DNA of 62,424 bases from IMG/VR virus record IMGVR_UViG_3300042397_000683, positions 1-62,424 of that record, one strand, 5' to 3'. Position 1 is the stretch's first letter, and every line of letters begins with the position of its first letter. The translations under genes and the position numbers were made by a program. Of the stretch, positions 1 to 62,424 are shown one piece after another. The notes beneath the pieces were generated by a model, which worked only from the letters and a program-made list of their open reading frames with translations, was not told the origin of the DNA and made no database searches. The DNA is from a virus (taxonomy: Duplodnaviria; Caudoviricetes).

Positions 1-97
1 AGCAAGAAAGAATCCAAATCAGAAAAGAAAAGCGAGTCCAAGAAATCGAACGCTGTGGCGAATCCGATTATATATAGCTCGGACTTTACGGTCGCTC
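1..97. repeat. Terminal direct repeat (copy 1), circular assembly overlap
   Basis: Bases 1-97 are identical to 62328-62424, and an ORF reads in frame through the junction. Confidence 0.97.
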
Positions 98-693
98 CAG
101 CAAGTGATGTCATTTCTATTATCGCAAGCGTAGGACTTAGTCAAAGTTCTCTAATGGGAAACTCTTCGTGGGGTATATCTTCTATGATATGGTCTACGTT
201 CGACCAGTTTGCTTTATCAGGTAGATACACCTTAATGAACTTCTCAGAAGGCAAGATGCAGTCCATCTCTAACTTCGGCGTCACAGGCGTCTATTTAGGG
301 GGCACAACGCTCGGATTTGTTACCGCTGCACATATCCAACCTTTAGGCAAATATGGTGTCTCAGGAGCCAACTATACGCTTAGTGTTGCAGGCGCAGATG
401 CTGGTCTCAACATCAGTAATAACGTAATGCTATTCTATACTATACCAGTTAAGATTAGCAAGAGACTGACAATATCGCCTGACATCTACCTATCAGGTAG
501 CTCAACAGGTTATTTAACGGCACAACAAAAGTTTATTACATCAGATGACATTGGGGTGCTTACAGGCGCATCCTTTGATATAGCGCTTACTAAACGCTTT
601 AAGTTTAATTTTGCGCTAAAGACTGGATTCAATACCAATCCAATTATTCCACAAAGTTATTTGGGTATGATTGGGACAAAGATAAATTTATAG
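1..693 (+). CDS. C-terminal part of a junction-spanning secreted protein (starts at 61749); predicted outer-membrane beta-barrel domain
   Basis: Frame is open from base 1 and continuous with the ORF starting at 61749; alternating amphipathic Gly/aromatic-rich strands; ends YLGMIGTKINL, resembling a terminal beta-strand. Confidence 0.7.
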   Translation, partial: SKKESKSEKKSESKKSNAVANPIIYSSDFTVAPASDVISIIASVGLSQSSLMGNSSWGISSMIWSTFDQFALSGRYTLMNFSEGKMQSISNFGVTGVYLGGTTLGFVTAAHIQPLGKYGVSGANYTLSVAGADAGLNISNNVMLFYTIPVKISKRLTISPDIYLSGSSTGYLTAQQKFITSDDIGVLTGASFDIALTKRFKFNFALKTGFNTNPIIPQSYLGMIGTKINL

Positions 694-9488: not shown

Positions 9489-12400
9489 ATGGCTAAAAGA
9501 CCAATAGATTTCAGCTCATTGACTGTAGCTGCAAGACAAGCTAGTGCTAATCAGAGTTCAGCACCGATAGACTTTAGTTCATTAACCGTTGCTGCAAGAG
9601 GTGGAGAAACTGAATCAGCTATAAAGCCTCTTGTAGAGGAAGACCCTTTTAAAAAAAAAGTCGATACGGGATTATCTGGAACGACAGGTTCTTTGGCTGG
9701 AGTTTCTAAGCCTATCAAGATTGCTACCCCTGTTGCAGAAGAAGGAGATGAGTCTTTTTTCGATAAGCTAAGCGGCATTGCTGGTTCAGTAAAAAATAGT
9801 TTATCTCCCGCAATGAGAGCGCTACCTGTTAATACTCTTGCAGGGGCTGTATCATTTGCTACAAATCTTGTTACTGGCGTTATTAAAGGCTCTATCAGCG
9901 AGCAAGACTTTAAAAGAGACCCATACTTACGCGACATCATTGATACGATAGAGCGCCCGTCTAAAAATTTATCAGAAGCAGCGGCTAGCGTTAATCGCGC
10001 TATAGTACCGCAAATCGAACTTGCTAAAAAACAAGCTGGAATCAAGCAAGAATACCTTAATGCCCCTATCTCTGAGGTAATGACCCAAGACGTTGGACAA
10101 GGGTTTAAAAAGCTTGCACTTGGAGCTATTGAGCAAATTCCTCAGCTTGGATTACTTATGGCTAGCGGAGGCGGAAGCAAAGCAAGAACATTTATTGCAG
10201 GAACAACTCTTGGCACTACTCAAGCTATGCAGCAAGAGTTCGAAAAAGACGGAGACATCTCAGGTATTGATTTGGCTCAATCTGCTATGAAAGGAGTTAT
10301 TGAAGGTCTAACTGAAATGATATTCAATACTGACCTTAAGACTGCTGCTAGCATAGGCAAATCTATTGTAGATGTTACTTTAGATGGTAGCAAAAAAGCC
10401 ATTAAGGATTTAATTGAGAAAGAAGGAAAGGTTGTTGCTAAGCAAATAATTACTCGTAACTACAAAGACGTTGCAAAGAATGGCTTAAAAGGTATGAGCG
10501 AGGAAAGCTTAGAAGAGGTTATTGCTACAGGCGCATCATTTGTTGTAGATACAATTGATTCAGGTAAGCTAAATACAAAGGATTACGAGAGATTAAAATA
10601 TGATTTAATTGACGCTGGTCTTCTTGGCGCAGCTATTGGCGGCCCAATATCAGTTTTCGGAGCAATAGCAACTAAAAAGAGTTTAACAGAAGAGCAGAAA
10701 TCTAGCATAGAAAGATTCCAAGAGGTTGCCAACAATACAGAATTTACGCCTAATCTTAGAAATGCCGCAAAAGAAAGAATAAAAGGTATTATTGAATCTG
10801 ATGCAGACTTAATAGATGAGCAATACAACAAATTGGCTTCACTTCCTCTTGAACAAAGAATAGAAGCTTTCAATCTGCTTGGCGCAATAAAATCGTCAGA
10901 AGCAGACTCTCGTAAGATTAAGGACATTGCGTTACAGGAAGATAATAACAAGATTATTGACGATTTCAAGTTAAGATTGGACGGCATATTTGAAGCCAAT
11001 AAGCCATCTGCTGAGGTAATCGAGAGCCCTAAAGTAGTAACTCCAGAACAAGTAGTAGATTTAGAAAAAGCTCGCCAAGAGGAGTTAGCAAAAGCAGAAG
11101 CTAGCTTTAAGGTTACTATGGGTGTACCTAGTGAGCCAATGAAGATTTCCCCAGAGTTCTCTGTTAAAGCAAAGGCTGAGGACTTAGGTATAAATACAGA
11201 ATATGAGCCATCTCCAAATATGCCACTTGATGTGGTTAAGAAAGAGCAGGCTAAGCCAGTGCAGTTTACTACTAAAGAGAGCCCTGATGCTTTATTGGAA
11301 GGAGATGTTTATGCCGTAAATCAAGGGAATAAGAAATTTGCTACTATCCTTTCTACTAATAGAAATGGCATACAAGAGTACTATGTTCCAGAGATGGATA
11401 ACCCTAAGCCATACTCAAACCTTGATGATGCTAAGTTTGCTGTAGAAGAAAAGCTTAGAGGTAGATTTATACCAGAAATTGAGCGTAGTGGCATTGATAG
11501 ATTGCGCGCTGATAAGTTTATACCTAAGACGGACATTGTCGTTAAAAATGACAATGGGGAGAATGTATTGCTTGATGCAGGTGCTAAGAAATCAATTCAG
11601 AACGCAGTTAAAGCGTTTAAGTCAGTTAGCACAGCCCCTGTATATCTTTATAAAAACACAGAAGACTTCAAGAAAGGCGTTTCCCTGGATTTAGGTCAAG
11701 ATAGCAAAGCGCTAGACGCAGCTGGACAAGTTGGTGGAGGGTTCTTTACTAATCAAAGAAACGAGGACTCTATACATATTAACCTAGCTAATCTTAATCA
11801 AACTACTATTGCTCACGAATTATTCCACGGCACAGTAGTAAACGTTGCTAGACAGAACCCATCAGCATTTGCTGAGATGAGAGATGCTATCGTTAACAAG
11901 CTTGGGGAAAATGACCTAATCAACGTTAGGGACGAGAAGGGTAATTTAGTTAATATGTCTGCTAAAGAGTATTTAGATAGTTATAGCAAGCAATATTCCC
12001 CTTCACAGCAGGCAGAAGAGTTCTTAGGAGAATTAACAGGATTATTAACTACCGATATAGCTAAGCTTAAAGACCCTACTATTTGGGAAACAATTAAGCT
12101 TGCGATTCGTAATTTAGTTAAGACTGCTGGCATCGATATTCCTTTGTTCGAAAAGACTGCCAATGTCAATGAAACAGTTAAATTCTTTAACGACTTAGCT
12201 AAATCATTGCAAACTGGAAAAGAGATTAACATAAGCAAACTTAAATTAAAAGATGAAAAACAAGCCGCTAAACAAGGAGATGCTAAAGGAAAAGCTGATG
12301 AGCAAAGCAAAAACAGAGAAAAAGATGAAAGTCTTCAAGATGATGTTAAGCGAGCTGTCAAAAAAGCAGCAGTAGCTCCTCCAAAAAGAGGTGGAAATCC

Positions 12401-15400
12401 TAATCCAACTACGGTAGCAACAGGTCTATCTAAAAAAGCCTTAGACATTGACCCTACTACTCCAGAGGATTACGCTCTACAATATTTTATTAAAGGTGGA
12501 AAGGTACTTAGAGGTAGCATTAAGCAAGGCACTCAAAAAGGCGCACTTGTATCTTTGTTTACTAAATCAAGACAAGGAGGAGATACAGAAGTTGTATCTG
12601 AGATGCGTCCTAGACTTGCGCTAACAAAAGGCGCTCCGTTTGGATTATCATTAGACGCTATCGCCGAAAGATTGTTTGGCGAATATCAAGCTAACGTATC
12701 TGGTGGAGATTTTGGCACAAACGTATCTTCTGCCTACGATTATATGAATTTCAGAGGAGCGGTTGAATCAGTCCTTATCGACAACAGAACTGCTGGAGAT
12801 ATGGCTGAATCTATCATTAAGTCTAAAGGCAAATTCACGCAAGCGGATAGCTTAGCTTTATCTGAGAACGAAGAATACGAAAAGCTTAGAATCAAAGCTG
12901 AGGCTGATGCTATGGGTATGACTGAGCAAGAGTTCTTAGACAAGGTTACTGAGCTAGAGGATACTCCAGAATTAGAAGCTGTAGAAGAAGCTTATTCTCA
13001 GGCATTAGATTTAATTGAAGACGAAGACTTTGCAAAGCTTTACGAGCTTGATGATAGTGATATTGCCAAGATTGACGAGTTAATGGCTGGAGTTGAGTCT
13101 ACTAATGGAGCGCTAGATGATAAATTAGCCGAGCAAAAGAAAGCTGTTCGCGACTTAGAGAGCGAGAGAAAGAAAGTTGTTTCAGCAATGGAGAAAGCTA
13201 GCAAAGAAACTCAGCTTGATATTACTGGCAAAGCTCCTATTCAAGAGCAGTTATTTGGCGCGGACACTAAATCTTTAACAGATAGATTACAGTCTGTTGA
13301 CGTGCAATTAGCGACTGCTAAAGCGGATGTTGCTGCTACACAATCTGCTATCGATTTCCAAGAAAGAGGAACGGTAGATATGTTTAGTGAGGATGAGAAT
13401 AACCTTATTAAGGAAAAGAGTACCGATATTTTAAAGACCCTTAAATTTGGCGGCAATGAACAATTAGAGGCTTGGACAGAAGAGCTAGAATTGCTTAATG
13501 AAAAAATTAGCAAATTAGAAAGTAGCGGCAAAGGTAGAGGGATGCAATCTTTGGATTTCTTCAAAGAGCAAGCTGACAAATACAGTAAATTGGTAAAAAA
13601 GAAAAAAGTCGAACTATCTAAAATTGAAGCTGAGTTAGCCGCTAGAGAGAAACTAGAAGAAGCTAAGCCGACTGAAGAAGTTGTGCCATCTGATGTATTA
13701 AAAGACGAGAATGGCAAGCCATTGGTTATGTATATAGATGGTAAGACTATTATAGGAACAGGACTTTCTTATGTAGAACTATCTACATTAGAGCCATCCA
13801 AGGAATCTAGTTTCGCCAAGAAAGTTGGATTCAATACAGCTACGGTATCTCTTACTAATTTCAAGAGATTAAACTACGCAGACATCATATTTAATAATAT
13901 TACTACTGAAAAGTTAGTCGGATTACTAAAACAGGCTAAAGAATCTGGAGCTGATGGTGTAATTGCTATAGATGGGGGAGGCAATATTAAAGCCGCCTAC
14001 GTATTTGACGAGGTAAACATAAAAGAGGCTAAGGTTGCCGAAAAACCACAAGCTAAAGAAAAAGCTGCGCCAATAACCTCTGAGCCAATCGCTCAGTTGG
14101 AGCAAAAGCTATATGAAGCAGAATCGGCATTAAGAACAGCTACTACAGGGAGAGCTAAGGTTACAGCGGAAAATAATGTAAACTATCTTAAGAAGGCTAT
14201 TGAGGACAAGAAAGCTGCTTCATTAATTGAAGTAGGCGAGGGTAAATATAATAATACTCAGATTAGACTTGCTGACAGCAAAAAGACTACACCTGAATTG
14301 CAGAGCAGATTAAATGATGTGAAGCAGGAGTTGGATGTCTTAACCGAGAAAATAGAAGTAAGAGAGGCATTAACTGAAGCTTTCCGTACTGGCGTAAATG
14401 CTAAGCAAGATGCAAGCTTAAACAAACTTGTTAATTCACGCATTGAGCTAAAGGCTGAAGAGGAAAATATCACTAAGGCTCTTGAGTTAAGAAAATCTCG
14501 TGAGACAAAGGCTCCTATTGAATCAAAAGCATCTAAAGAAATTGAATCTATTAATAGAGAGATTCAGCAATACGAGATTGAGATTGAAAATGCACTAGAG
14601 GAAATCGAGAACACTAAGTCTAATTACAAAGAGGACGTTAACCGTATCGCAATAGCGAAGATGGACTTAAAGGCAGCTAAGCTTAGTAGAGATGAAAAGG
14701 CTGATAGATTAGAGGAATTAAAGGCGGAAGTAGAGGATTTAGCAGACGAAAGAGATACTTATATTGAGCAATACAAAGATGATATAGCTAACGCTAAAGC
14801 GGAAATTAAGAAACTTAATAAGCGTTTAGCTAAGTTACAGGAATCAACTCCTTCTGCTAAATTCCAGAAGCAAGGCATATCTGTAGCACCTAAATCTGCT
14901 CAAGAAACTAATGCGCAATTCCTTGCAACTAGAAACGGTACTCCTATTGGCTTTAACTATGACACAGACTTAGTAGCTAGAGAGCGCTTTAATATACCTA
15001 CTCTTAAGAAAATTGGAGAAGGTAGCGATAGAGTTGTATTTGACTTAGGAGACAACAAGGTGCTTAAGGTTGCTAAAACTGCTCGTGGTTTAGCTCAAAA
15101 CATCCACGAAGGAAGCTATGATTTGGTAGAAGAAGGCATATTGCCAGAGGTATTTGAAAGCGGATTAAACTACATTGTAGCTGATAAAGTAGAGCCAGCG
15201 AAAGGCAACAAAGCTGTAAATGATTTAATTCGCGACCTAAAGAACTTTACTCAAAGCGATTTCGATACGCGTAATTCTAGGCTACAAGATGTACTAGAGG
15301 CTAACGACTTAAGCTATGTAATGAACTATGATGTTCTTTACGGAGATTTATCTGCGGCAAGAAACTGGGGCGTTAAAAACGGAAAACCAATCCACCTTGA

Positions 15401-18185
15401 TGGCGGAACTTTTGGTGGCGTACAAATGATAAACCAGTATAAAGGCATTAAGAACCTTGAAGACAGCGACTTTAGAGATGTTTATAATAAGAGTCGTCAG
15501 GCTAAAACTAAATTTGGAGACAAAGACACATTTACTAAATTCCAGAAGCAAGGCGTATCTGTTGCTCCAACGTACAAGTATCAAATGAACGAAATGTTCA
15601 AAGACCCTCAGCGCCTAACAAGAGACGTTGCGGCGAAATATGATATCCGTACAACACTTAATGAGAGAGGCAAGATTGAGGGTAGTCTTATCGAGGTTGA
15701 ACGCGCTATTACAGACCAGGTTGTCACAAGAGCCTTATCTAAGGTCGGCGTTGCCACATTTAAAACTATTGGCGCAATTGAAAATGCTCCATTATTTAAA
15801 GCAGGTACAGGAAAAACTGTTAAGCTTAAAGATGCTTTAACAGGATGGGCTGGATATACTGGCAATAATTTACGCAATGCTACATTAAAGGCTATCCAAA
15901 GCAACAACAAATATGCTGCTTCAACAGCTAGAGTTGCTGCATCACTTATTGGGAACTTAGCTAAGTCGGATGTATTACAACAACAAAGAGCATTAAGAAG
16001 TGGCTCTCAGTTAGATGCCAACAACTCTATTGCAATGCTGTCAAAAGGATTGAATGGAATGATTGGATTTGACGACAAGGCATTGATGCGTGTGCATTCA
16101 TTACTTGACCCAGAGGCATTTGAGATAATGGGAAGCGAAGATGCTGTTACGTCTCCATCTGACTTATCATTACAGGAACTTAGGTTGTATAATACCTTAC
16201 GCGATATGAATGATTTCATTCACGAATGGCATTATCAAAACGAGTTTATCGACCAGCCTACCTACGACAAGCATAAAGGCAAATACTTTGCTCGTATGTA
16301 CGAGGAGATTGAGAGAAAAGAGTTTGCTGATTTGCACGATGCTATTGACAAGATGCCGTCTGGCGCAGACTTCAGAATGTTTAAGGCGCGCAAAGACTTC
16401 TCTGAAATTGAGCTTACATTAATGAATGACCCTATTTATATTACATCTAAGCGTTTAGCTACGATGTTGCATAATAAGGCTACATTAGAGTTCTGCAACG
16501 CAATGGCTGCTGACCCATCTTATACTACATATAAGAATGCCGCAGATATTCCAGAGAACAACATAAGAGGATTTAAGTTATTAGATTCTCGCGGAGGAGG
16601 AAAGAGATACGGAGACTTAACAAACAGATATGTGCCATTAGCCTTATACGAAGAGCTAAGAGGGACTACTTTTGCTAACAAATTCGTGTCAGCATCTTAC
16701 GACGCATTGCGTATGTATGATGGATTAGCTATTCGCCAATTCTTTAAGAAGACTAAAACATTATACAACCCGACAACACGCCTAGGTAACATTACTACCA
16801 ACTTTGCGTTTGCTTGGCTTGCAGGCGTTGACCCCTTTACAATGATGAAGAATCGTGTTAAGGCAAAAGATTCATTAGATAATTATGATGATTTTGCTAA
16901 GGATTTAGCTGTAGCTGGTGTCCTTGGAACAGATGTTATTGTGGCTGATTTGTCTCAGAAAAAAGATGCAGCTGGAGTGACTGGATTCTTAGAGAAAGTT
17001 GGCCTAAATAAAGAGATTGCTGATAAAGCTAGAGCGGTAGACAAGTATATGATTGAGTCTTACGGAAGAACCGATGATGTAGCTAAGATTTCTTTATACC
17101 GCTCACTAATCGAAGACTATGGAAAATCTAAAGAAGAGGCTTTACGCACCGTAGGGGAATCAATGCAGAACTACGCGACAGTAGGAAAGGCTTATCAATA
17201 CTTCTCTAAGATGCCATTGATTGGAAATCCATTCGTTAAGTTTAGCTCTGATATGGCTAGAATCGTAGCTAACGGATTTGCTAAAAGACCTTTGTATATG
17301 GCTTCATTCTTAGGTATGATGTATGGCACAGCTAGATTACTATCTAACTTATCTGGAGAGCCAGAGGAAGAAAGAGAGGCTCGCGAATCTCGCGCGTTTA
17401 TTCCTAAGATTCCTTTAGGATTCACAGATATTCCATTGACTTGGAAAGTTGGCAAGTATGAGGTTAATGCCGCGCGCTTTATTTCTCCTTACTATGTGTA
17501 TGATGCTGGATATCGCTCTAATACACTAGCTGAGCTAACTAAGTTTGCGCCAATCCAGTTGTCTTATGAGAATAAGGTTGGAGTTGCATCTGATTATATG
17601 CCACTAATGAGTGACCCATTCATTGCTCCATTGGCGCAGGTTTTATTAGATAAAGACTTTAGAGGATTGCCTATTGCAGACCCCAATGGAAGCAAGTATA
17701 CTGCTCAAACAGTTACTGAAGGAGAAGCACTTTGGAATCGCGCAAATTATTTAGGCAATAGCTACGCGTCTCCTATTTGGGGATATGTATCAAACTTGTA
17801 TGCAGCAGCGACTGGACAAGGAGATATTTATGGAAGAAGAAGAGATATACCTAGTGCAATCCTCAATAGCGTAATTAAGGTTCAAGAAATGGAATCTAAG
17901 GACGTACAGAAGGCGGTAATCAATCAGGTTAAGTATATTGACTCAGAGTACAAGCAGATTAAGACTGACATCACTTCAAGAAGAAATGACGACATCGAAA
18001 AGATTCAAGAAGTAGTTGGCTCTGATGCTACAGAAGCTCAAAAGGAAAACCAAATCTTAAACATAAGAGCGTCTTATAGCAATTTTGTTGAAGAAAGAGT
18101 TAATAGAATGAATGAGCTTAAGATAGACAGACAGCTTCCGATAGAGAGATTGTACAAAATCCAAAACCCAAAGAAGAATGATTAA
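9489..18185 (+). CDS. Giant polyvalent ejection protein (zincin metallopeptidase, degenerate ART-like, kinase-like and LPD38-like domains)
   Basis: HELFH plus downstream EEF (zincin); 'KDENGKPLVMY...GADGVI...YVFD..NIK' (ART-PolyVal-like); 'IGEGSDRVVF...VLK...GDL...RNWG...LDGG' (kinase-like); 'PLAQVLLDKDFRGLPI' (LPD38-like). Confidence 0.75.
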   Translation: MAKRPIDFSSLTVAARQASANQSSAPIDFSSLTVAARGGETESAIKPLVEEDPFKKKVDTGLSGTTGSLAGVSKPIKIATPVAEEGDESFFDKLSGIAGSVKNSLSPAMRALPVNTLAGAVSFATNLVTGVIKGSISEQDFKRDPYLRDIIDTIERPSKNLSEAAASVNRAIVPQIELAKKQAGIKQEYLNAPISEVMTQDVGQGFKKLALGAIEQIPQLGLLMASGGGSKARTFIAGTTLGTTQAMQQEFEKDGDISGIDLAQSAMKGVIEGLTEMIFNTDLKTAASIGKSIVDVTLDGSKKAIKDLIEKEGKVVAKQIITRNYKDVAKNGLKGMSEESLEEVIATGASFVVDTIDSGKLNTKDYERLKYDLIDAGLLGAAIGGPISVFGAIATKKSLTEEQKSSIERFQEVANNTEFTPNLRNAAKERIKGIIESDADLIDEQYNKLASLPLEQRIEAFNLLGAIKSSEADSRKIKDIALQEDNNKIIDDFKLRLDGIFEANKPSAEVIESPKVVTPEQVVDLEKARQEELAKAEASFKVTMGVPSEPMKISPEFSVKAKAEDLGINTEYEPSPNMPLDVVKKEQAKPVQFTTKESPDALLEGDVYAVNQGNKKFATILSTNRNGIQEYYVPEMDNPKPYSNLDDAKFAVEEKLRGRFIPEIERSGIDRLRADKFIPKTDIVVKNDNGENVLLDAGAKKSIQNAVKAFKSVSTAPVYLYKNTEDFKKGVSLDLGQDSKALDAAGQVGGGFFTNQRNEDSIHINLANLNQTTIAHELFHGTVVNVARQNPSAFAEMRDAIVNKLGENDLINVRDEKGNLVNMSAKEYLDSYSKQYSPSQQAEEFLGELTGLLTTDIAKLKDPTIWETIKLAIRNLVKTAGIDIPLFEKTANVNETVKFFNDLAKSLQTGKEINISKLKLKDEKQAAKQGDAKGKADEQSKNREKDESLQDDVKRAVKKAAVAPPKRGGNPNPTTVATGLSKKALDIDPTTPEDYALQYFIKGGKVLRGSIKQGTQKGALVSLFTKSRQGGDTEVVSEMRPRLALTKGAPFGLSLDAIAERLFGEYQANVSGGDFGTNVSSAYDYMNFRGAVESVLIDNRTAGDMAESIIKSKGKFTQADSLALSENEEYEKLRIKAEADAMGMTEQEFLDKVTELEDTPELEAVEEAYSQALDLIEDEDFAKLYELDDSDIAKIDELMAGVESTNGALDDKLAEQKKAVRDLESERKKVVSAMEKASKETQLDITGKAPIQEQLFGADTKSLTDRLQSVDVQLATAKADVAATQSAIDFQERGTVDMFSEDENNLIKEKSTDILKTLKFGGNEQLEAWTEELELLNEKISKLESSGKGRGMQSLDFFKEQADKYSKLVKKKKVELSKIEAELAAREKLEEAKPTEEVVPSDVLKDENGKPLVMYIDGKTIIGTGLSYVELSTLEPSKESSFAKKVGFNTATVSLTNFKRLNYADIIFNNITTEKLVGLLKQAKESGADGVIAIDGGGNIKAAYVFDEVNIKEAKVAEKPQAKEKAAPITSEPIAQLEQKLYEAESALRTATTGRAKVTAENNVNYLKKAIEDKKAASLIEVGEGKYNNTQIRLADSKKTTPELQSRLNDVKQELDVLTEKIEVREALTEAFRTGVNAKQDASLNKLVNSRIELKAEEENITKALELRKSRETKAPIESKASKEIESINREIQQYEIEIENALEEIENTKSNYKEDVNRIAIAKMDLKAAKLSRDEKADRLEELKAEVEDLADERDTYIEQYKDDIANAKAEIKKLNKRLAKLQESTPSAKFQKQGISVAPKSAQETNAQFLATRNGTPIGFNYDTDLVARERFNIPTLKKIGEGSDRVVFDLGDNKVLKVAKTARGLAQNIHEGSYDLVEEGILPEVFESGLNYIVADKVEPAKGNKAVNDLIRDLKNFTQSDFDTRNSRLQDVLEANDLSYVMNYDVLYGDLSAARNWGVKNGKPIHLDGGTFGGVQMINQYKGIKNLEDSDFRDVYNKSRQAKTKFGDKDTFTKFQKQGVSVAPTYKYQMNEMFKDPQRLTRDVAAKYDIRTTLNERGKIEGSLIEVERAITDQVVTRALSKVGVATFKTIGAIENAPLFKAGTGKTVKLKDALTGWAGYTGNNLRNATLKAIQSNNKYAASTARVAASLIGNLAKSDVLQQQRALRSGSQLDANNSIAMLSKGLNGMIGFDDKALMRVHSLLDPEAFEIMGSEDAVTSPSDLSLQELRLYNTLRDMNDFIHEWHYQNEFIDQPTYDKHKGKYFARMYEEIERKEFADLHDAIDKMPSGADFRMFKARKDFSEIELTLMNDPIYITSKRLATMLHNKATLEFCNAMAADPSYTTYKNAADIPENNIRGFKLLDSRGGGKRYGDLTNRYVPLALYEELRGTTFANKFVSASYDALRMYDGLAIRQFFKKTKTLYNPTTRLGNITTNFAFAWLAGVDPFTMMKNRVKAKDSLDNYDDFAKDLAVAGVLGTDVIVADLSQKKDAAGVTGFLEKVGLNKEIADKARAVDKYMIESYGRTDDVAKISLYRSLIEDYGKSKEEALRTVGESMQNYATVGKAYQYFSKMPLIGNPFVKFSSDMARIVANGFAKRPLYMASFLGMMYGTARLLSNLSGEPEEEREARESRAFIPKIPLGFTDIPLTWKVGKYEVNAARFISPYYVYDAGYRSNTLAELTKFAPIQLSYENKVGVASDYMPLMSDPFIAPLAQVLLDKDFRGLPIADPNGSKYTAQTVTEGEALWNRANYLGNSYASPIWGYVSNLYAAATGQGDIYGRRRDIPSAILNSVIKVQEMESKDVQKAVINQVKYIDSEYKQIKTDITSRRNDDIEKIQEVVGSDATEAQKENQILNIRASYSNFVEERVNRMNELKIDRQLPIERLYKIQNPKKND

Positions 18186-56012: not shown

Positions 56013-56303
56013 ATGTCATTTATCAAGCAGTTGTTCTCTGACGACAACGACATCAACGAAAAATCCGTACTAGGATTCTTATCTTTTGCAGTATTGTTCT
56101 TTTATGGAATAGTAGACATTGTAACTGGATATGTAGGTCAACAATTCGTTATTGAGCCTATTATCCTTGAAGTGTTTGCAGCACTAACAGCAGGTTGTTT
56201 TGGTATCTCTTCTTATGAGAAGGTTCAAAACCGTAAGACCGATGCTGAGCGCGAAAAGAACTTACCTGGAGGCTTAGACCCTCTACCAGAAGATGAAGGT
56301 TAA
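56013..56303 (+). CDS. Putative holin (2 TM)
   Basis: Two TM segments and a charged C-tail; upstream of the endolysin. Confidence 0.55.
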   Translation: MSFIKQLFSDDNDINEKSVLGFLSFAVLFFYGIVDIVTGYVGQQFVIEPIILEVFAALTAGCFGISSYEKVQNRKTDAEREKNLPGGLDPLPEDEG

Positions 56304-56898
56304 TATAGCCCTCTTTGTGTGTTGTATGATTGCTCTCTTCTATGCTTATACAAAGCATATGGAAGCAGGAGAGCCACGTCCTAACGACACGCTAGTTGTG
56401 CACGACACATCTTGGATTAAGCACGACTCTATTATAGTGAAGACAAAGATTGCTTACAAGGAAGTAATTGTTAATGTGATGTCTAAACCAGAGATGTTAC
56501 CTGACACTAACTACGATAACTTGAAGCGTCAGTATATGGCATTGCTTCAGCTGTATATGAATAAAGTAATTTATTCGGATACGATTCGCGTAGGAAATTA
56601 CGGATACATTGCAGTTTTAGATACAATTAACGAGAACAAAATAAAATATAGGAGGACGCGCGAAAATTATGAGATTCCTGTCGTTAAGGAGACTAAAACT
56701 ATTACTAAGTATGCACCACCCACTCGTAATCTATATATTGGAGGTGGCGTCTTGGCTAACAATACCGTTGGGCTAAGAGGTGCTGAATTAGGGATTATGT
56801 ATAAAACCAAAAAAGACCAGCTGTATAATGTGAAAGCATCAGTTAATGTCGATGGGACATTGCTTTACGGTGTTGGTTATTACTATAAAATAAAATAA
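56293..56898 (+). CDS. Putative spanin-like envelope protein
   Basis: N-terminal membrane anchor, D(S/T)-hydrophobic repeats, C-terminal amphipathic beta strands ending GVGYYYKIK. Confidence 0.5.
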   Translation: MKVNIALFVCCMIALFYAYTKHMEAGEPRPNDTLVVHDTSWIKHDSIIVKTKIAYKEVIVNVMSKPEMLPDTNYDNLKRQYMALLQLYMNKVIYSDTIRVGNYGYIAVLDTINENKIKYRRTRENYEIPVVKETKTITKYAPPTRNLYIGGGVLANNTVGLRGAELGIMYKTKKDQLYNVKASVNVDGTLLYGVGYYYKIK

Positions 56899-57089: not shown

Positions 57090-57941
57090 ATGTTACTAAG
57101 AGTAGGTTCATTCGGAGAAGATGTTACTAAGCTTCAAGTTAAGCTTGGCGTAGACCCTATTGGCAAGTTTGGTCCTAAGACAGAGGCAGCAGTTAAAGGT
57201 TGGCAGTCAGCACACGGCTTAACACCTGATGGTATTGTAGGAGATGCAACGTGGTCAAAGATGTTTGCTCCAGTAGCAGAAACACCTGCACCAGCTCCAA
57301 TCGTCGCTCCTGCGCCAACTGTGGCGCCTGCAGCACAAGGATTCAAGCTAGATGCACTTAAAGGACACGTTCCTCAAACTGTTATCGACCAAATTCCTGA
57401 TACAGCAGCACGTTTTGGTATTACAACTCCATTACGCTTAGCTCACTTCTTAGCGCAATGCGGACACGAGTCAGGTGGCTTTAGAGCTGTACAAGAAAAC
57501 CTTAATTACTCAGCTAAGGGATTATGCGGAATCTTCCGTAAATACTTCCCTAGCGTAACGATTGCTATGCAATACGAACGTAAGCCTGAGAAGATTGCTA
57601 ACAAGGTTTATGCTAACCGTATGGGCAACGGCAACGAGGCAAGTGGAACAGGTTGGAAGTTTCGTGGACGCGGATATATCCAGCTCACGGGGACTGAAAA
57701 TTATAAATCATTTGACGCTACAGTCCCTGAAGACATTATAGCGAATCCTGATTTAGTAGCAACTAAGTATCCTTTAGCCTCCGCAGCGTTCTTCTTTAAG
57801 AAAAATAACTTATGGTCTATCTGCGACAGAGGTGCAAGCGCTGACGTTGTAACTGCTGTAACTAAACGCGTAAACGGTGGAACTATTGGTTTAGCAGACC
57901 GTCAGAAACATTTCAAGGAGTTTTATCATTTATTAGCATAA
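57090..57941 (+). CDS. Endolysin: peptidoglycan-binding domain plus GH19 catalytic domain
   Basis: 'GKFGPKTEAAVKGWQ..HGLTPDGIVG..TW'; 'HFLAQCGHESGG', 'FRGRGYIQLTG', 'VTKRVNGGTIGL'. Confidence 0.93.
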   Translation: MLLRVGSFGEDVTKLQVKLGVDPIGKFGPKTEAAVKGWQSAHGLTPDGIVGDATWSKMFAPVAETPAPAPIVAPAPTVAPAAQGFKLDALKGHVPQTVIDQIPDTAARFGITTPLRLAHFLAQCGHESGGFRAVQENLNYSAKGLCGIFRKYFPSVTIAMQYERKPEKIANKVYANRMGNGNEASGTGWKFRGRGYIQLTGTENYKSFDATVPEDIIANPDLVATKYPLASAAFFFKKNNLWSICDRGASADVVTAVTKRVNGGTIGLADRQKHFKEFYHLLA

Positions 57942-58066
57942 TGGCAAAGCAAAAACCATCATCGGAGAACAAAAAGGTTGTATTTGGTGTACGCCGTAAC
58001 GGCAAGCACAAAAAGACCAATGGTCCAAAAGAAAGTCCTTCTAAGAAATCTAGAGGGCAAGGGTAA
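57941..58066 (+). CDS. Small basic 'RGQG'-terminal phage protein (41 aa, not in ORF track)
   Basis: MAKQKPSSENKKVVFGVRRNGKHKKTNGPKESPSKKSRGQG. Confidence 0.7.
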   Translation: MAKQKPSSENKKVVFGVRRNGKHKKTNGPKESPSKKSRGQG

Positions 58067-58068
58067 TT

Positions 58069-58527
58069 ATGAGACTACTGCTCAGCATATTGTTATTTTG
58101 GACAATGCGTCCCACAGAAATAACTGTAGCATCTGTACAGAATAATGTACAGATTGGCGCTCTTGCTGGCAATAGGAACTTAGAGTTTGGTGTTAAAAAT
58201 ATGCTAGAGGAGTTCTTGCAAGAAGCAGGACACGATGTCTCCGATGATGCACCAACTCAGATTAAGGTAGAGATTCTTTATTTAGACGTATTAAAAACTC
58301 AGTCTAATCTATCAGTATTCCACAACAATAAGGAAGCTGTAGTAATTAGAATGAGGGGCAAATTAATACAGGATGGAAAGGTTAAAAAGACCGTTATCGT
58401 TGAAGAGCAAGCAGCTGAAGTTTCAATGTCTGCATTACTAATTGACGAGGGCGGTAAATTTAACCAAACCAACTTAAGCTCTGCATTAAAGAAATCTTGT
58501 AACACCTTAATCACTAAGCTCTTATAA
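58069..58527 (+). CDS. Exported protein, short CsgG/TolB-N-like paralogue
   Basis: Hydrophobic N-terminus; 'FGVKNMLEEFLQE' and 'KFNQTNLSSALKKS' align with motifs in 61042..61752. Confidence 0.6.
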   Translation: MRLLLSILLFWTMRPTEITVASVQNNVQIGALAGNRNLEFGVKNMLEEFLQEAGHDVSDDAPTQIKVEILYLDVLKTQSNLSVFHNNKEAVVIRMRGKLIQDGKVKKTVIVEEQAAEVSMSALLIDEGGKFNQTNLSSALKKSCNTLITKLL

Positions 58528-60302
58528 TGAAAAAACTATTGTTTGCCCTTGCAGCAATTCTGCTGCTTACCTACAGCACATCTGCTCAAACAGTTAAATT
58601 AAGTTTGCAAAATGCAAACACCAATACCAATGTTGACGGAAACGTTATCAACAAAGGGGATGAGTTCTTAGTAACGGTAATGGCAGATGGCAATAGCAAC
58701 ACAACTACCCGCGCTCTTTACTTTGATTTTGAATATCAGAATACTGCATTCCAGTTAATGACTGTTAATCATACAGGAACTATGGGCAACGGAGGCATTA
58801 TGCCAGCTGGCTCACAAATTTCAATAAGCCATTACGATTACCCAGGATATAGTTTTGCTAAGACTAGCTTAAATTCTACAGCTAACGGCAACACAAACTA
58901 TATTAACTCCCAATACAATTATACACAGGGAGGCTCTAAGTCAATTCTTCGTGTCTATCTTAACTGGGCTGTTAATAGCGGAGGTCTAGGTAACGATAGG
59001 TTATTAGTTCTTAAGTTCAAACTAAAGACAGATGCTCCAGGATTTGCTTGGAATCCTATTGTAATGAACTTTGCGGCAGCGTTTAATCAGAATGGCACTA
59101 GTGGCTCAACCTTGATGACAACGCCTCTTACAAGCGTTATTATGCTAGACCCAACTGCTACTAGATATATCAATCCAACGATTGATTACAACGCAAATGT
59201 GGACGTGCAATCTCTACATAGAATTGCATTTACAGACTCAGTTGCTAATACAACTTACTTAGTGGACGCCTTATCTGATGGTACAATACCTGTAGACCAG
59301 ACGCGCTTCAAGCCTAATACAGTCTACCACATTAGGACGCTATTTAATATGGATAGTATTAAAGACTTATCCGCGGCAGCAGTTACTGTTTCTGACTACA
59401 CTACTGCGCAGGCTGAGTTTGTTACACAAAACTTAGACGGAACATTCAAGAATCAAAGCATAATTACAGGTGCAGGATATTATGCCTCAGACGTTAACTT
59501 TAACAAGACGTTAGATGGAGGAGACTTAGTTAGATTGTTTGCGCAGGTATCAGGTGTAGAATCATTAGTTACGCTGCCTACTAGTTATGCATCAGGTACA
59601 GATATGTATATGAGTGTACCTACGTTTACGGATTCTACATTTAACGCTATGACGGCGTCTAGCTGGAAGACTGTTGCTAATAATTACGTTCGCTTTAAGA
59701 CAGCCGAAATCGGCAAGAACCTACCATTAAAGATTAAGTTCTTAATCCCAGGAGATATAAACAGAAGCCATAGCTCACAGGTTATTATTAATAATTCTAT
59801 TGCAACTAACGCTGTGCCTAGTTTAAAGAAAAACTTAGCTACAAAGCAGACAGCGCATCTTTTAATTAACACGCCTCAGCTTATTCCATCTATTAATGTT
59901 ACAATTTCAGGTAAAACTGTAACAACTAATAGTTTTGATATACCTGTTAAAGTTTCTTCTGGAGCAACAAGTGTATCAGCTCTGCAATTTGAGTTCGTTT
60001 ATGACCCAACAAAAGTTAAATTTGTAGCGCTTTTAAATGAACTGCCTAACACTTGGTATACCTTTGTGGATAATAAGGCAGGACGCGTAAGATTTGGGGC
60101 ACTAGATAAGGACTTAAAAAATCCAGTAGCAGGAGACCTTACTCCATTTACCTTAAAGTTTGAGACAATAGGTAACGGAGCAGACATTAATAGCTTTATT
60201 AAGGTGTCTCCTAATATGGATGCGGCATCAAAGACAGGATACCAACTAGGGATTAATTTAAACCTAGAGGTTATAAAATTAACGGGAATAAATAACTTTT
60301 AG
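58527..60302 (+). CDS. Secreted protein with two cohesin-like domains and a dockerin-like Ca-binding loop
   Basis: Signal peptide ending SA|Q; 'GDEFLVTV...LYFDFEYQ' and 'DIPVKV...SALQFEFVYDPTKVKF'; 'DVNFNKTLDGGDL'. Confidence 0.7.
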   Translation: MKKLLFALAAILLLTYSTSAQTVKLSLQNANTNTNVDGNVINKGDEFLVTVMADGNSNTTTRALYFDFEYQNTAFQLMTVNHTGTMGNGGIMPAGSQISISHYDYPGYSFAKTSLNSTANGNTNYINSQYNYTQGGSKSILRVYLNWAVNSGGLGNDRLLVLKFKLKTDAPGFAWNPIVMNFAAAFNQNGTSGSTLMTTPLTSVIMLDPTATRYINPTIDYNANVDVQSLHRIAFTDSVANTTYLVDALSDGTIPVDQTRFKPNTVYHIRTLFNMDSIKDLSAAAVTVSDYTTAQAEFVTQNLDGTFKNQSIITGAGYYASDVNFNKTLDGGDLVRLFAQVSGVESLVTLPTSYASGTDMYMSVPTFTDSTFNAMTASSWKTVANNYVRFKTAEIGKNLPLKIKFLIPGDINRSHSSQVIINNSIATNAVPSLKKNLATKQTAHLLINTPQLIPSINVTISGKTVTTNSFDIPVKVSSGATSVSALQFEFVYDPTKVKFVALLNELPNTWYTFVDNKAGRVRFGALDKDLKNPVAGDLTPFTLKFETIGNGADINSFIKVSPNMDAASKTGYQLGINLNLEVIKLTGINNF

Positions 60303-60307
60303 TTAAG

Positions 60308-60661
60308 ATGAAAAATACGATAGCGGTTTTGTTGATAGTGATGCTTGCAGCTTGCCAAGACATTGAAGTGTTAGAAAAGGAAACAAGCCTCGGTTCGATT
60401 CCGCAACTAACAGATATTACTAGTCTTGTAGTGGATAGCAAGCAGGCTACTATTGTAGCAAATACAACTGTAGGGGCTAAATACTCTGTGCAGGTGTACA
60501 AATTCGGAAGTTCCGAACCACTAAGAACTGTTGGATTTACAGCTACATCAGTAGCTACTATTAAGACTATTAAATTAGATACATTGTCTCGCGGGTTATA
60601 TGACTTAACTTTGACGGACGTATCAGGCGTAACAATTAAAAAACCTTTAATCATTAATTAA
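60308..60661 (+). CDS. Lipoprotein with small Ig-like (T9SS-CTD-like) domain
   Basis: Lipobox LAAC; C-terminus 'LSRGLYDLTLTD..G.TIKKPLII'. Confidence 0.7.
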   Translation: MKNTIAVLLIVMLAACQDIEVLEKETSLGSIPQLTDITSLVVDSKQATIVANTTVGAKYSVQVYKFGSSEPLRTVGFTATSVATIKTIKLDTLSRGLYDLTLTDVSGVTIKKPLIIN

Positions 60662-60662
60662 A

Positions 60663-60971
60663 ATGGCAGAAGAACAAGAAGGCGGAGGCTCATTAAAGAG
60701 CATCCTTATCGGACTAGCAAGTACTATCGCACTAGGTGTAGGTGGGTTTGTGACTAAACAATTAACAGGCGAAGAGGAAGCAGCGGCTGCACCAGCGGCA
60801 GTAACAGCTCCAGCACCCGTAATTAACATTACAACTAACAACACGCAACAGCAAAAGCAAGCTGCAAGCGCAGGTGGGGGAACTAAGGTTATTGAGCGCG
60901 TTGTAGAGAAGCCAGCAGCACCTAAGAAGAAGACTGAAAAGGAGGCGCTACAGGAAGAGCCTAAGTGGTAA
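60663..60971 (+). CDS. Single-TM protein with Ala/Pro linker
   Basis: 'ILIGLASTIALGVGGFV' TM segment followed by a low-complexity tail. Confidence 0.65.
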   Translation: MAEEQEGGGSLKSILIGLASTIALGVGGFVTKQLTGEEEAAAAPAAVTAPAPVINITTNNTQQQKQAASAGGGTKVIERVVEKPAAPKKKTEKEALQEEPKW

Positions 60972-61041
60972 AAATACAAACCAATATTGGCTTGTAAATG
61001 ATAATTATCCAAACCAATGGTTTGCATTACTAATATAAACT

Positions 61042-61752
61042 ATGAAGAAGATATTATTCTTGTCACTAATATTGACAACATTTGTTACAAAAGCACAAGT
61101 AGCTTCTGTTAAAACAGAAGCCTACACAGCATCGTTTGAGAAGAAGATTAATATCGATTCATTAATAAACTATGATGGTCCAAAGATTCCTATTCAGCTA
61201 TTGTCTTTAGGTATCAATGAAGAGGTATACGCGGCGTATCCTGAGCTAAAAGACAAGCGTGTGGGTCTTGGTGTCACTAACATTGTTATCGAGTTCCTAG
61301 AGGAAACTAATCGCTTCACGTTTACCGAAGACAAAGCTGAGATTAAGAACAGAATGGTCAAGCAGTTCCAAGCTTCACAGGCTGGAATCTCTGAGAATAA
61401 GCTAGATGGCAGAGGTAAAATCAAGTTAGCTCAATACTTTGTTTACATCGAATGCTACGACTTCTCTATTAGTGAAGATGAATCCATTTCAATTAAAGGC
61501 GACACAAAGCAAACTGTGGTCACGCGATTAGGTTTGCAGGTAAAATTCGTTAATGCAGAGACTGGAGAGTTTTTTACAGGCTCAGGATTAGGAGAAGCTA
61601 AAACTACGCGCGAGGCTACATTAATGAATGACGGCAACTTCGCGGAGGTTAAGTTTAATCAATCTACTATTGGTACAACAACCAAGAAGGCGCTAGAGAA
61701 TGCTTCAGCTAAGATTATCGTTCGAATGATTAAGAAGAAGATATTCAAGTGA
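61042..61752 (+). CDS. CsgG/HfaB-family exported protein
   Basis: Signal peptide KA|Q; 'YDGPKIPI', 'GLGVTNIVIEFLEETNRF', 'GKIKLAQYFV', 'VKFVNAETGE', 'IG..TKKALENA'. Confidence 0.72.
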   Translation: MKKILFLSLILTTFVTKAQVASVKTEAYTASFEKKINIDSLINYDGPKIPIQLLSLGINEEVYAAYPELKDKRVGLGVTNIVIEFLEETNRFTFTEDKAEIKNRMVKQFQASQAGISENKLDGRGKIKLAQYFVYIECYDFSISEDESISIKGDTKQTVVTRLGLQVKFVNAETGEFFTGSGLGEAKTTREATLMNDGNFAEVKFNQSTIGTTTKKALENASAKIIVRMIKKKIFK

Positions 61753-62424
61753 AATGGTTATGGCTTCTGATACTTATTCTGACATTCTTTGGTGCTAAAG
61801 GGCAGGTACTAACACAAGTATTCGTTGACCCTTGTAGCGGAAGAGTAACTACTGTAGTCGTACCAATTGCTAATGGAAAAACAACTGTCGTCTATCGAGG
61901 ACAATACAGAGTAGTAACGGCAAACGATATTACTTCAGGAGCATTACAAGCGTGGATTAACGATTTAACTATTAACTTCCCTTGTCCGCAAGCTACTGTT
62001 GCTGTACAACAAACCGTTACAAACGCAGTTCAACAAGCGGTAGCACAAGCCACAGCAGCAGCAACAGCAACTGCGACAGCGGCGGCTACTTCAGCAGCAA
62101 CATCTGCGGCAACATCAGCTGCCTCCTCAGCGGCATCAGGAGCAGCATCTTCAGCAGCAAGTAGTGCGGCATCGTCAACGCCAGCACCAGCAACGTCATC
62201 ATCAAGCAGTTCAAGTAGTTCATCTCAAGGCGAGAGTAGTTCTCCTAAAACGGAGTCTAAGTCAGAAACAAAGTCAGAGTCTAAAAGCGAAGAGAAATCT
62301 GAATCTAAATCCGAATCAAAAAGTGAAAGCAAGAAAGAATCCAAATCAGAAAAGAAAAGCGAGTCCAAGAAATCGAACGCTGTGGCGAATCCGATTATAT
62401 ATAGCTCGGACTTTACGGTCGCTC
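61749..62424 (+). CDS. N-terminal part of a 423-aa junction-spanning protein (signal peptide, small domain, Ala/Ser and SESK stalk), continuing into 1..693
   Basis: GTG start overlapping the upstream TGA; MKWLWLLILILTFFGAKG|QVLTQVFVDPC...; no stop before the window end; in frame with ORF 55..693. Confidence 0.8.
   Translation, partial: MKWLWLLILILTFFGAKGQVLTQVFVDPCSGRVTTVVVPIANGKTTVVYRGQYRVVTANDITSGALQAWINDLTINFPCPQATVAVQQTVTNAVQQAVAQATAAATATATAAATSAATSAATSAASSAASGAASSAASSAASSTPAPATSSSSSSSSSSQGESSSPKTESKSETKSESKSEEKSESKSESKSESKKESKSEKKSESKKSNAVANPIIYSSDFTVA
62328..62424. repeat. Terminal direct repeat (copy 2), circular assembly overlap
   Basis: Identical to bases 1-97. Confidence 0.97.

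Follow-up and report, generated by a model that had tools for sequence, protein, structure and literature searches.

The stretch of DNA analysed here, referred to as the window, is the whole of the 62,424-nucleotide IMG/VR virus record IMGVR_UViG_3300042397_000683 (Caudoviricetes). The 97 bases at its start recur identically at its end, which shows the record to be circular, and the window represents the circular 62.3-kb genome of a freshwater phage, with a G+C content of 38.9%. Six co-oriented genes of the + strand, here named g1 to g6, run from position 58069 through the junction to position 693, with intergenic gaps of -4 to 70 bases. As judged from their sequences, all six products bear export or membrane signals, and comparison of related loci indicates that the genes form a mobile unit, inherited together on differing phage backbones. 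The reading that we favour, with a probability of roughly 45%, is that this block builds a ring-and-barrel complex in the outer envelope, which places or holds a binding protein on the surface of the infected cell.

A conserved and mobile block of exported proteins

The block begins with g1 (58069..58527), which codes for a small exported protein of 152 aa, weakly YajG/Lipoprotein_16-like, followed by g2 (58527..60302), whose 591-aa product is a secreted multidomain protein with a C-terminal cohesin. Next come g3 (60308..60661; 117 aa), a lipoprotein resembling a type IX secretion system (T9SS) sorting domain, g4 (60663..60971; 102 aa), a bitopic inner-membrane protein, and g5 (61042..61752; 236 aa), a predicted CsgG-fold protein with a type I signal peptide. 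As for g6 (423 aa in total), its first part (61749..62424) codes for a signal peptide, a domain of about 65 residues with two cysteines and a stalk, and its second part (1..693, in which bases 1-97 repeat the last 97 of the window) for the end of the stalk and a predicted C-terminal 12-strand barrel. An initial annotation, made from the sequence alone, had described six tightly packed genes directly after the endolysin; open reading frames (ORFs) were found there as described, and a 41-codon ORF alone intervenes.

The same annotation had placed an export signal or membrane anchor on each product, which agrees with what was seen by eye and by hydropathy. A hydrophobic N-terminal stretch followed by A|Q or G|Q is present in g2, g5 and g6, g3 has the lipobox LAAC, g4 a single transmembrane segment at residues 13-31 and g1 a short, hydrophobic N-terminus, with clearer signal peptides ending in AQ among g1 relatives. 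A Gln after signal cleavage is known as the 'Q-rule' of Bacteroidota, according to the accessible text of PMC5837995 and PMC10653852. Taken with the T9SS sorting domains of relatives and with the presence of the block in Flavobacterium phage immuto, it indicates that the host is probably a member of the Bacteroidota, of Flavobacterium type, in line with what had been proposed from the Gln residues. Two longer antisense ORFs, at 60271-60654 over g3 and at 60647-61027 over g4, were considered and rejected: they are open in just 10 of 58 and 15 of 69 relatives, respectively, and since they are not conserved, the + strand genes g3 and g4 are taken as the real ones.

In PHROGs, no family was matched at E <= 0.1 by g1, g2, g3 or the C-terminal part of g6, and g4, g5 and the N-terminal part of g6 gave weak or low-complexity matches only. 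For the six proteins, NCBIfam returned nothing beyond sub-threshold or low-complexity matches and PADLOC nothing but one low-complexity match in the g6 stalk (E 0.009), while the endolysin was the sole match of a DNA search against phage records.

When viral contigs were scanned with g5, 123 stretches matched, of which 115 encode a relative. The best 80 of these 115 contigs were retained and, with the addition of immuto (L081), make up the 81 related loci considered hereafter; four records of immuto match g5, at 55% identity. Among the 81 loci, g1 is present in 68, g2 in 75, g3 in 58, g4 in 69 and g6 in 77, many of the absences falling in loci ended by contig edges. Fifty-eight loci are well flanked, their sequence reaching at least 5 kb upstream of g5 and at least 2 kb beyond it. 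The order g1<g2<g4<g5<g6 is kept in 54 of them, and the remaining four (L046-48 and immuto) hold members of the same families in another order. On this comparison, the co-occurrence of the block genes is beyond chance, and the gene-neighbourhood search suggested by the initial annotation thus found them co-conserved. The most conserved product is g5 (median identity among relatives of 81%), with g2 (61%) and g3 (44%) among the least conserved. Altogether, 5908 proteins match g5 at E <= 0.001, and lake or freshwater sequencing runs from 15 studies contain part of the block.

The surroundings of the block vary greatly. Virion genes downstream of it are common only to the closest relatives (L001-L010 and L059), the other loci having other flanks. 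Immuto is a 160-kb myovirus whose block (gp013-gp019) has a nuclease on one side and, on the other, small genes close to those for ribonucleotide reductase and helicase; the setting is one of replication and nucleotide metabolism, away from structural genes. Conversely, the downstream structural protein (about 70% identity) served to find 22 loci, nine of which lack all genes from the holin-like ORF to g6; for six of these nine, the upstream sequence extends over at least 6.5 kb. One such cassette-less locus, L098, carries two small transmembrane proteins, an endolysin, a 179-aa lipobox protein and a Lys-rich 45-codon ORF, followed by the shared structural genes. Since backbone relatives without the block have a complete lysis set of their own, the block appears accessory rather than essential.

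At the cellular level, one genome per species was scanned with g5 for 185,579 species. Five matches were obtained, all on contigs of metagenome-assembled genomes titled Flavobacterium, Sediminibacterium, Bacteroidetes or Thiobacillus, each with further cassette genes. All six genes are found solely in one of them (L082), most of the others being shortened by contig ends, and the five are likely to be binned phage contigs.

Additional ORFs are inserted into the block of some close relatives and are absent from the window. They are 190-220 aa long, GIY-YIG homing endonuclease-like by eye, and lie between g4 and g5, g3 and g4 or g5 and g6 (L004:7029-7619, L005:3894-4463, and also L006, L008 and L059).

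Predicted folds and domains of the six products

The initial annotation had named two CsgG-like proteins and proposed fold searches to verify them. For g5, the CsgG assignment held. Pfam CsgG (PF03783) is matched by 15 of 38 full-length members of the g5 family, with a best E of 1.9e-17, and LpoB by 7 of 38; some homologs carry the JGI name CsgG. A g5 profile search of 1.84 billion representatives gave 282 clusters at E <= 0.001, and Atlas neighbours named CsgG/HfaB score 0.92-0.94. The AlphaFold2 (AF2) model of g5, built from a 38-member alignment, has a predicted local distance difference test (pLDDT) value of 79.9, and CsgG is its top Foldseek match (E 1.4e-7, template modelling score about 0.5). 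In VIA comparisons, it aligns with pre-pore CsgG (4uv2_O) at Z 13.8, with a root-mean-square deviation (rmsd) of 3.5 over 177 aligned residues, and with membrane-bound CsgG (4uv3_C) at Z 13.3 (rmsd 3.2, 192 aligned), the next structures being Cj1090c (Z 10.3), PelC (9.6) and LptE (8.9). The modelled fold of g5 is accordingly that of CsgG; a PDB profile search with the g5 family profile gave no match. The protein is about 45 residues shorter than CsgG, and its model has three strands of 16-19 residues with a polar tip sequence. Distant bacterial relatives of g5 are lipoproteins (G-C), some of them fused to further C- or N-terminal regions.

When four mature copies of g5 were modelled together, the complex score was 0.72, vs. 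0.00 for the best of three controls, a mark reached by 20 of 30 proteins solved as one-chain pairs and by 1 of 23 solved as single chains, four copies being unlike that calibration. The runs agree on at least 90% of contacts, with a partner pLDDT of at least 77. Each copy contacts two neighbours by two differing faces, as in a ring, and the invariant residues N80, I81 and E84 lie in the interface. These models suggest that g5 probably oligomerises.

Concerning g1, the second of the two proteins named CsgG-like, the claim did not stand to the same extent. Its match to Pfam Lipoprotein_16 (YajG, PF03923) has an E of 2.9e-4 and 21.1 bits, under the cut-off of 25; PF03923 is matched by 5 of 17 g1 relatives at E <= 0.01, and NCBIfam PRK11627 matches g1 at 17.1 bits vs. 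a cut-off of 242. An hhalign comparison of the g1 and g5 profiles gave 59% over 60 N-terminal columns and 30% over 33 C-terminal columns, and two short motifs occur in the same order in both proteins. It is therefore possible that g1 is a short relative of g5, and its naming as a second CsgG-like protein is better taken as a weak lead than as a finding. In the Atlas search, g1 gave viral clusters without assigned function only, one of them with PF03923 on 18% of its members. Two matches of a PDB profile search with g1 were both judged to be due to chance.

The g6 protein had been described as a stalked beta-barrel, and the model agrees. After the signal peptide comes the domain of about 65 residues, whose Cys pattern is kept in 74 of 77 homologs, and then a stalk of about 125 residues, first Ala/Ser/Thr-rich, then Ser-rich and finally made of Lys/Ser/Glu repeats, the length of which varies greatly in relatives. 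The last 210 residues are modelled by AF2 (pLDDT 84.4) as a barrel with 12 long strands. In VIA, the best matches of this barrel are KdgM (Z 17.8, rmsd 2.3, 166 aligned), NalP (Z 17.6, rmsd 3.1, 195 aligned), EspP (Z 17.3) and FapF (Z 17.1, rmsd 3.2, 204 aligned), these four being tied, and AIDA-I is matched at Z 16.6; the porins KdgM and NanC are both among the best matches. In BFVD, phage proteins named as outer-membrane or autotransporter beta-domain proteins match it as well. On the strength of the model, g6 is predicted to end in a 12-strand outer-membrane beta-barrel. No Pfam family of autotransporters or of FapF is matched by g6, and a PDB profile search with the profile of its C-terminal family gave no match. 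The 97-base terminal repeat (1-97 = 62328-62424) falls within the Lys/Ser/Glu repeats, which are low-complexity coding sequence, and the number of repeats at this assembly junction could be mis-assembled.

The transmembrane segment of g4 is followed by an Ala/Pro-rich periplasmic spacer, which includes a conserved P-V-I-N-I motif, and by a P-x-W end. The family alignment has the invariant residues M1, E3, E4, G36, P52, I54 and W102, with a start of the form M-[SA]-E-E. From these features, we read g4 as an inner-membrane tether that would span the periplasm and dock by its tail.

For g2, the label 'cohesin-dockerin' stood in its first half. The C-terminus of g2 (residues 458-546 and onward) matches Cohesin (PF00963) with 23.7 bits, just under the cut-off of 24.1, and an E of 6.1e-5, and Cohesin is matched in 11 of 14 g2 relatives (best E 4.8e-10). 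PF00963 is also the precomputed assignment on most of the best 120 g2 homologs, and the sole family there. At the family level, sequence profiles thus support a cohesin domain on g2. The dockerin half did not stand: no dockerin family was matched in the 14 relatives at E <= 0.01. A single, invariant EF-hand-like loop is present in g2, D322-x-N-x-N-x-x-x-D-G-G-D333 (D322, N324, D330, G331, G332 and D333). The one match of a PDB profile search with the g2 family (E 0.75) was judged a chance match.

An extra family of about 190 aa, absent from the window, is encoded between g4 and g5 at L016:7426-8004 and in 28 further loci. It has N-terminal transmembrane segments and an acidic C-terminus with D-x-D-G-D-G repeats, dockerin-like or calcium-binding by eye, and no Pfam match; it is a possible partner for the g2 cohesin.

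The T9SS C-terminal sorting domain (CTD, PF18962) was found on 3 of the 14 g2 relatives, with 39.5 bits (L062), 27.8 bits (L057) and 22.0 bits for a cut-off of 27, and immuto gp015 combines a cohesin with a CTD (34.6 bits). Extra g2-type paralogs located after g6 have C-type lectin (Lectin_C) or GEVED domains. In g3, the lipobox Cys is shared by all 16 aligned relatives and hydropathy reaches 3.28 over residues 5-15. Its match to the Pfam CTD has an E of only 0.099; by hhalign, the g3 family aligns with the CTDs of g2 relatives at 91.8% (E 7.3e-7, 72 columns). From these alignments, g3 is best described as a lipoprotein with a T9SS-sorting-domain-like domain, which does not stand at the end of a cargo protein. 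In F. johnsoniae, SDDFE serves as a surface-export signal of lipoproteins (accessible part of PMC5080379). The acidic residues at +3 and +5 after the g3 Cys resemble it, which suggests that g3 may be surface-exposed.

The 75 loci with a g2-family gene were then sorted by a CTD profile. In 60 of them, a g3-type lipoprotein accompanies a g2 that lacks a CTD; in 13, g2 bears a CTD and g3 is absent. No locus combines g3 with a CTD on g2, and the last two are cut off. With g3 or a CTD on g2 and never both, the sorting-domain module would be needed once, either in cis or in trans.

Lysis neighbourhood and possible roles of the block

Upstream of the block, also on the + strand, lie up_96 (56013..56303), a holin-like ORF of 96 aa with two transmembrane segments (residues 19-37 and 45-63), and up_201 (56293..56898), a 201-aa protein which is N-terminally anchored in the envelope according to its family alignment; neither has a family match. 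A 62-codon ORF separates up_201 from the endolysin (57090..57941), which has PG_binding_1 (E 1.5e-12) and GH19 (E 1.7e-7) domains and matches phrog_181 (E 2.9e-68). The 41-codon ORF which follows (57941..58066) is Lys/Arg-rich, overlaps the endolysin stop and ends in G-Q-G. It has no family match, is kept in 41 of the 42 loci where the endolysin precedes g1, and might act as a small basic lysis peptide, bind DNA or have another role altogether.

Homologs of up_96 and up_201 are present in 56 and 43 of the 81 loci, respectively, and three arrangements were distinguished. The holin-like gene, up_201 and the endolysin lie upstream of g1, as in the window; or the holin-like gene lies between g4 and g5 (L045-L061); or it stands before g5, with the endolysin between g5 and g6 (L065-L077). 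In L046-48, up_201 directly follows g5, the L046 copy having a canonical lipobox.

The lysis region of the cassette-less locus L098 is organised differently. Its endolysin, M15-type as named from motifs by eye, is directly followed by the 179-aa protein (L098:7741-8280, +), which has a lipobox F-A-S-C and a C-terminal transmembrane segment and is u-spanin-like by topology. The Lys-rich 45-codon ORF (L098:8249-8386), similar to the 41-codon ORF of the window, comes after this gene. Taking the Lys-rich ORF as a landmark, the u-spanin-like gene lies upstream of it and g1-g6 downstream, so the spanin counterpart is more likely to be up_201 than the cassette. Gene order thus suggests that lysis genes were swapped upstream of the Lys-rich ORF and g1-g6 inserted downstream, and makes up_201 a candidate for the counterpart of a spanin in this phage group.

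Other genes were noticed beside the cassette. A NUC1-type nuclease with a signal peptide ending in A-Q, and thus a further exported protein that accompanies the block, is found next to or near it in immuto (gp012, L081:4202-4780) and in about 10 loci, such as L050 (16041-16625). In L065-type loci, the embedded endolysin is flanked by a 139-aa signal-peptide protein with an aromatic C-terminal residue, which resembles a small outer-membrane barrel (L065:5626-6045), and by a 300-aa protein whose N-terminal half is Ala/Glu-rich and whose C-terminal half is hydrophobic (L065:6950-7852), neither having a Pfam match. In the window, the late operon occupies the + strand from about 37.9 kb through the junction to 18.2 kb, with terminase, portal and PHROG 'virion structural protein' families. 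Its structural region includes an ORF of 2898 aa (9489-18185, +), with a single weak PHROG match over residues 1833-1988.

According to the reading favoured at the outset, the block products would be exported by the host Sec pathway and come together in the outer envelope of the infected cell. There, g5 would form a ring under the outer membrane, perhaps together with g1, and g6 would sit in the membrane, with a small disulfide-bonded head on a long flexible stalk, the complex being tied to the inner membrane by the conserved C-terminal P-x-W end of g4. The payload would be g2, a binding protein ending up on the cell surface, and g3 would be its anchor or escort, bringing a sorting-domain-like module in a separate lipoprotein. 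Late in infection, the surface might thus be re-dressed, so that receptors are masked against the adsorption of progeny or competitors to the cell or its debris, or that cells are stuck together; the benefit would be receptor masking, exclusion or aggregation. An arrangement of a conserved machine and a variable binder agrees with the identities, which are highest for g5 and among the lowest for g2 and g3.

Several points weigh against such a display complex. The evidence is computational throughout. Taken alone, g5 has no match in Pfam (E <= 1), NCBIfam or PDB profiles (E <= 10). Its signal peptide and those of 14 close relatives end in A/G followed by Q/V, with no lipobox Cys, and its long hairpin has an invariant polar S-E-D-E stretch, which makes membrane insertion doubtful. 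The oligomer score of 0.72 may reflect the model's memory of solved CsgG rings. The g2 cohesin is left with no dockerin partner found, and the g2 of the window has no CTD, either by Pfam or by a profile of the CTDs of relatives. The mutual exclusion of g3 and CTD stands for few lineages, about three of them with a CTD, and not for 73 independent events. As the space between the endolysin and g1 is too short for a promoter, the block is probably expressed late, along with lysis and virion genes, which would leave little time for display. Finally, the holin-like and endolysin genes accompany the block in all three arrangements, which points to lysis. The initial annotation had called the block a self-contained module, and a co-conserved set of exported proteins it is; independent of the lysis genes, which travel with or inside it, it is not.

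These last points lead to the main rival explanation, rated as somewhat unlikely, in which the block is lysis machinery: the g4 tether, g3 lipoprotein, g5 ring and g6 barrel would break or open the outer membrane after the endolysin has acted, taking the place of spanins in these Bacteroidota phages. Between the endolysin and the start of the block there are 128 bases, with no promoter-sized gap; a GH19 endolysin homolog is present in 42 and a homolog of the holin-like up_96 in 47 of the 58 well-flanked loci, and the embedded endolysin (L065 type) and holin-like gene (L045-L061 type) bring lysis genes inside the block. Moreover, the topology of g3 and g4 resembles an o-spanin/i-spanin pair, and a recognisable spanin was not found elsewhere in the window, the cassette-less L098 having its u-spanin-like gene. 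Yet the position of that gene, upstream of the Lys-rich ORF, favours up_201 as the spanin counterpart, g3 is missing from the 13 loci with a CTD on g2, and the periplasmic part of g4 is Ala/Pro-rich, unlike what a coiled coil would probably show. Cohesin, lectin, GEVED and T9SS signals are features of surface proteins, which need a living, energised cell; the immuto block stands among genes of early or middle type; and six proteins of up to 591 aa exceed by far the known steps of outer-membrane disruption. An open outer-membrane channel formed by g5, with or without g6, which would alter permeability, with small molecules passing in or out, or the timing of lysis and to which the other genes would be accessories, appears improbable. 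It would agree with the CsgG fold and predicted self-association of g5, with the porins among the best matches of the g6 barrel and with proposals published for phage CsgG/CsgF in pelagimyophages and Melnitz (accessible text of PMC9004378 and PMC9599517). Against it stand the polar hairpin of g5, which also has no lipid anchor, and the lack of any match of the six proteins to CsgF-like or CsgE-like families; in addition, the cohesin/CTD/lectin proteins, the inner-membrane tether and the stalked head of g6 are left unexplained.

By far the least credible is that the six proteins are ordinary virion or assembly components within a late structural operon. The block does lie on one strand between tail-fibre-like genes upstream and PHROG 'virion structural protein' matches downstream, but all six proteins have Sec-type export or membrane signals, and no PHROG structural family is matched at E <= 0.1 besides low-complexity matches. 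Furthermore, the block occurs on differing backbones with other virion genes, in immuto away from structural genes, and some backbone relatives are entirely without it.

An extension of the surface-display reading, which we consider unlikely, is that the display system would plug into the T9SS of the host, the sorting domain being either part of the cargo (in cis) or a separate surface lipoprotein (in trans). Many Flavobacterium phages use T9SS-exported surface proteins as receptors. If the extension were true, T9SS-linked display could occupy or re-route the T9SS and shield the infected cell and its debris from adsorption. The block also amounts to a natural experiment on T9SS sorting, some phages having the domain in cis and others in trans. 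More generally, phage genes which rebuild the host surface decide on the next infection, on the loss of progeny on debris and on clumping, and so shape bacterial mortality in lakes. The block is widespread in viruses (115 contigs), is passed among unrelated phages and hardly occurs in cellular genomes, and its CsgG-fold protein comes without a lipid anchor and without curli.

Comparison with known systems

In E. coli CsgG (PF03783; 4uv2, 4uv3 and 6l7a), the fold, a transitive profile link and the predicted head-to-tail self-association are shared with g5. In contrast, g5 has a Gln at +1 instead of a lipobox, no direct profile match, polar hairpin tips and no curli partners. The initial annotation had reported no curlin repeats, and no curlin family was matched in the six proteins at E <= 1. 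In the pairs PelC-PelB (9h80, 5t0z) and LptE-LptD (5ixm), a small alpha/beta lipoprotein of the CsgG/LptE/PelC fold class acts together with an outer-membrane barrel from a neighbouring gene; PelB and LptD are much larger, however, and the 12-strand barrel of g6 is too small to hold a plug. As for the type Va autotransporters NalP, EspP and AIDA-I and for FapF, their layout is that of g6, in which a long linker connects an N-terminal domain to a terminal 12-strand barrel, but g6 is without their Pfam match and the Z of its barrel ties with those of the plain porins KdgM and NanC.

Spanins are either two-component (Rz/Rz1) or unimolecular (T1 gp11). Like the block, spanin genes follow the endolysin and combine an inner-membrane-anchored protein with an outer-membrane lipoprotein. 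Here, however, the lipoprotein comes first, no coiled coil is apparent, g3 is absent from 13 loci and the unit has four further large proteins. T9SS cargo of Bacteroidota ends in the sorting domain PF18962, according to the accessible text of PMC11285876. Some g2 relatives likewise end in a CTD, whereas in the window the CTD-like domain is on a separate lipoprotein. No described case of a sorting domain as a separate lipoprotein was met, though no search was aimed at it. Phages of P. gingivalis are reported to encode Q-rule secreted proteins, to which the accessible part of PMC10367356 assigns no role.

The presence of csgG-like genes in pelagiphages, mentioned in the initial annotation, is in print. 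Curli-type clusters of pelagiphages and of the OM43 phage Melnitz include CsgG, CsgF, CsgA/B, FecR, a kinase and a cyclase (accessible text of PMC9599517, PMC9004378 and PMC7029224), and the roles proposed for them are aggregation, superinfection defence, import and lysis control (accessible text of PMC9599517 and PMC9004378). The likeness lies in a phage-carried, horizontally moving multigene cluster around a CsgG-fold protein, with a host that is without it. The differences are a cohesin protein, a T9SS-CTD-like lipoprotein, an inner-membrane tether and a stalked barrel, a Bacteroidota host and a non-lipoprotein g5; no Pfam family for CsgF, CsgE, CsgA/B, FecR, kinase or cyclase was matched in the six proteins at E <= 1. 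Phage CsgG clusters are thus already known, and the set of partners seen here is not among them. No published description of the cassette was found in the literature searched, most subscription journals being outside its coverage, and one paper on Baltic Flavobacterium phages (PMC7077304) has no mention of cohesin, lectin, immuto, lysis, secretion or membrane.

The closest known counterpart is the same cassette in a cultured phage, gp013-gp019 of immuto (NC_055915), whose host is Flavobacterium sp. LMO8. It comprises three g2-type proteins (one with a C-type lectin domain, one unnamed and one with a cohesin and a T9SS CTD), a g4-type protein, the g5 homolog at 55% identity, a g6 homolog and a g1-type protein. 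It differs from the block of the window in having no g3, a CTD on the cohesin protein, g1 in last position and annotations that are hypothetical or domain-only. With immuto and Flavobacterium sp. LMO8 available as a cultured pair, the block is testable now.

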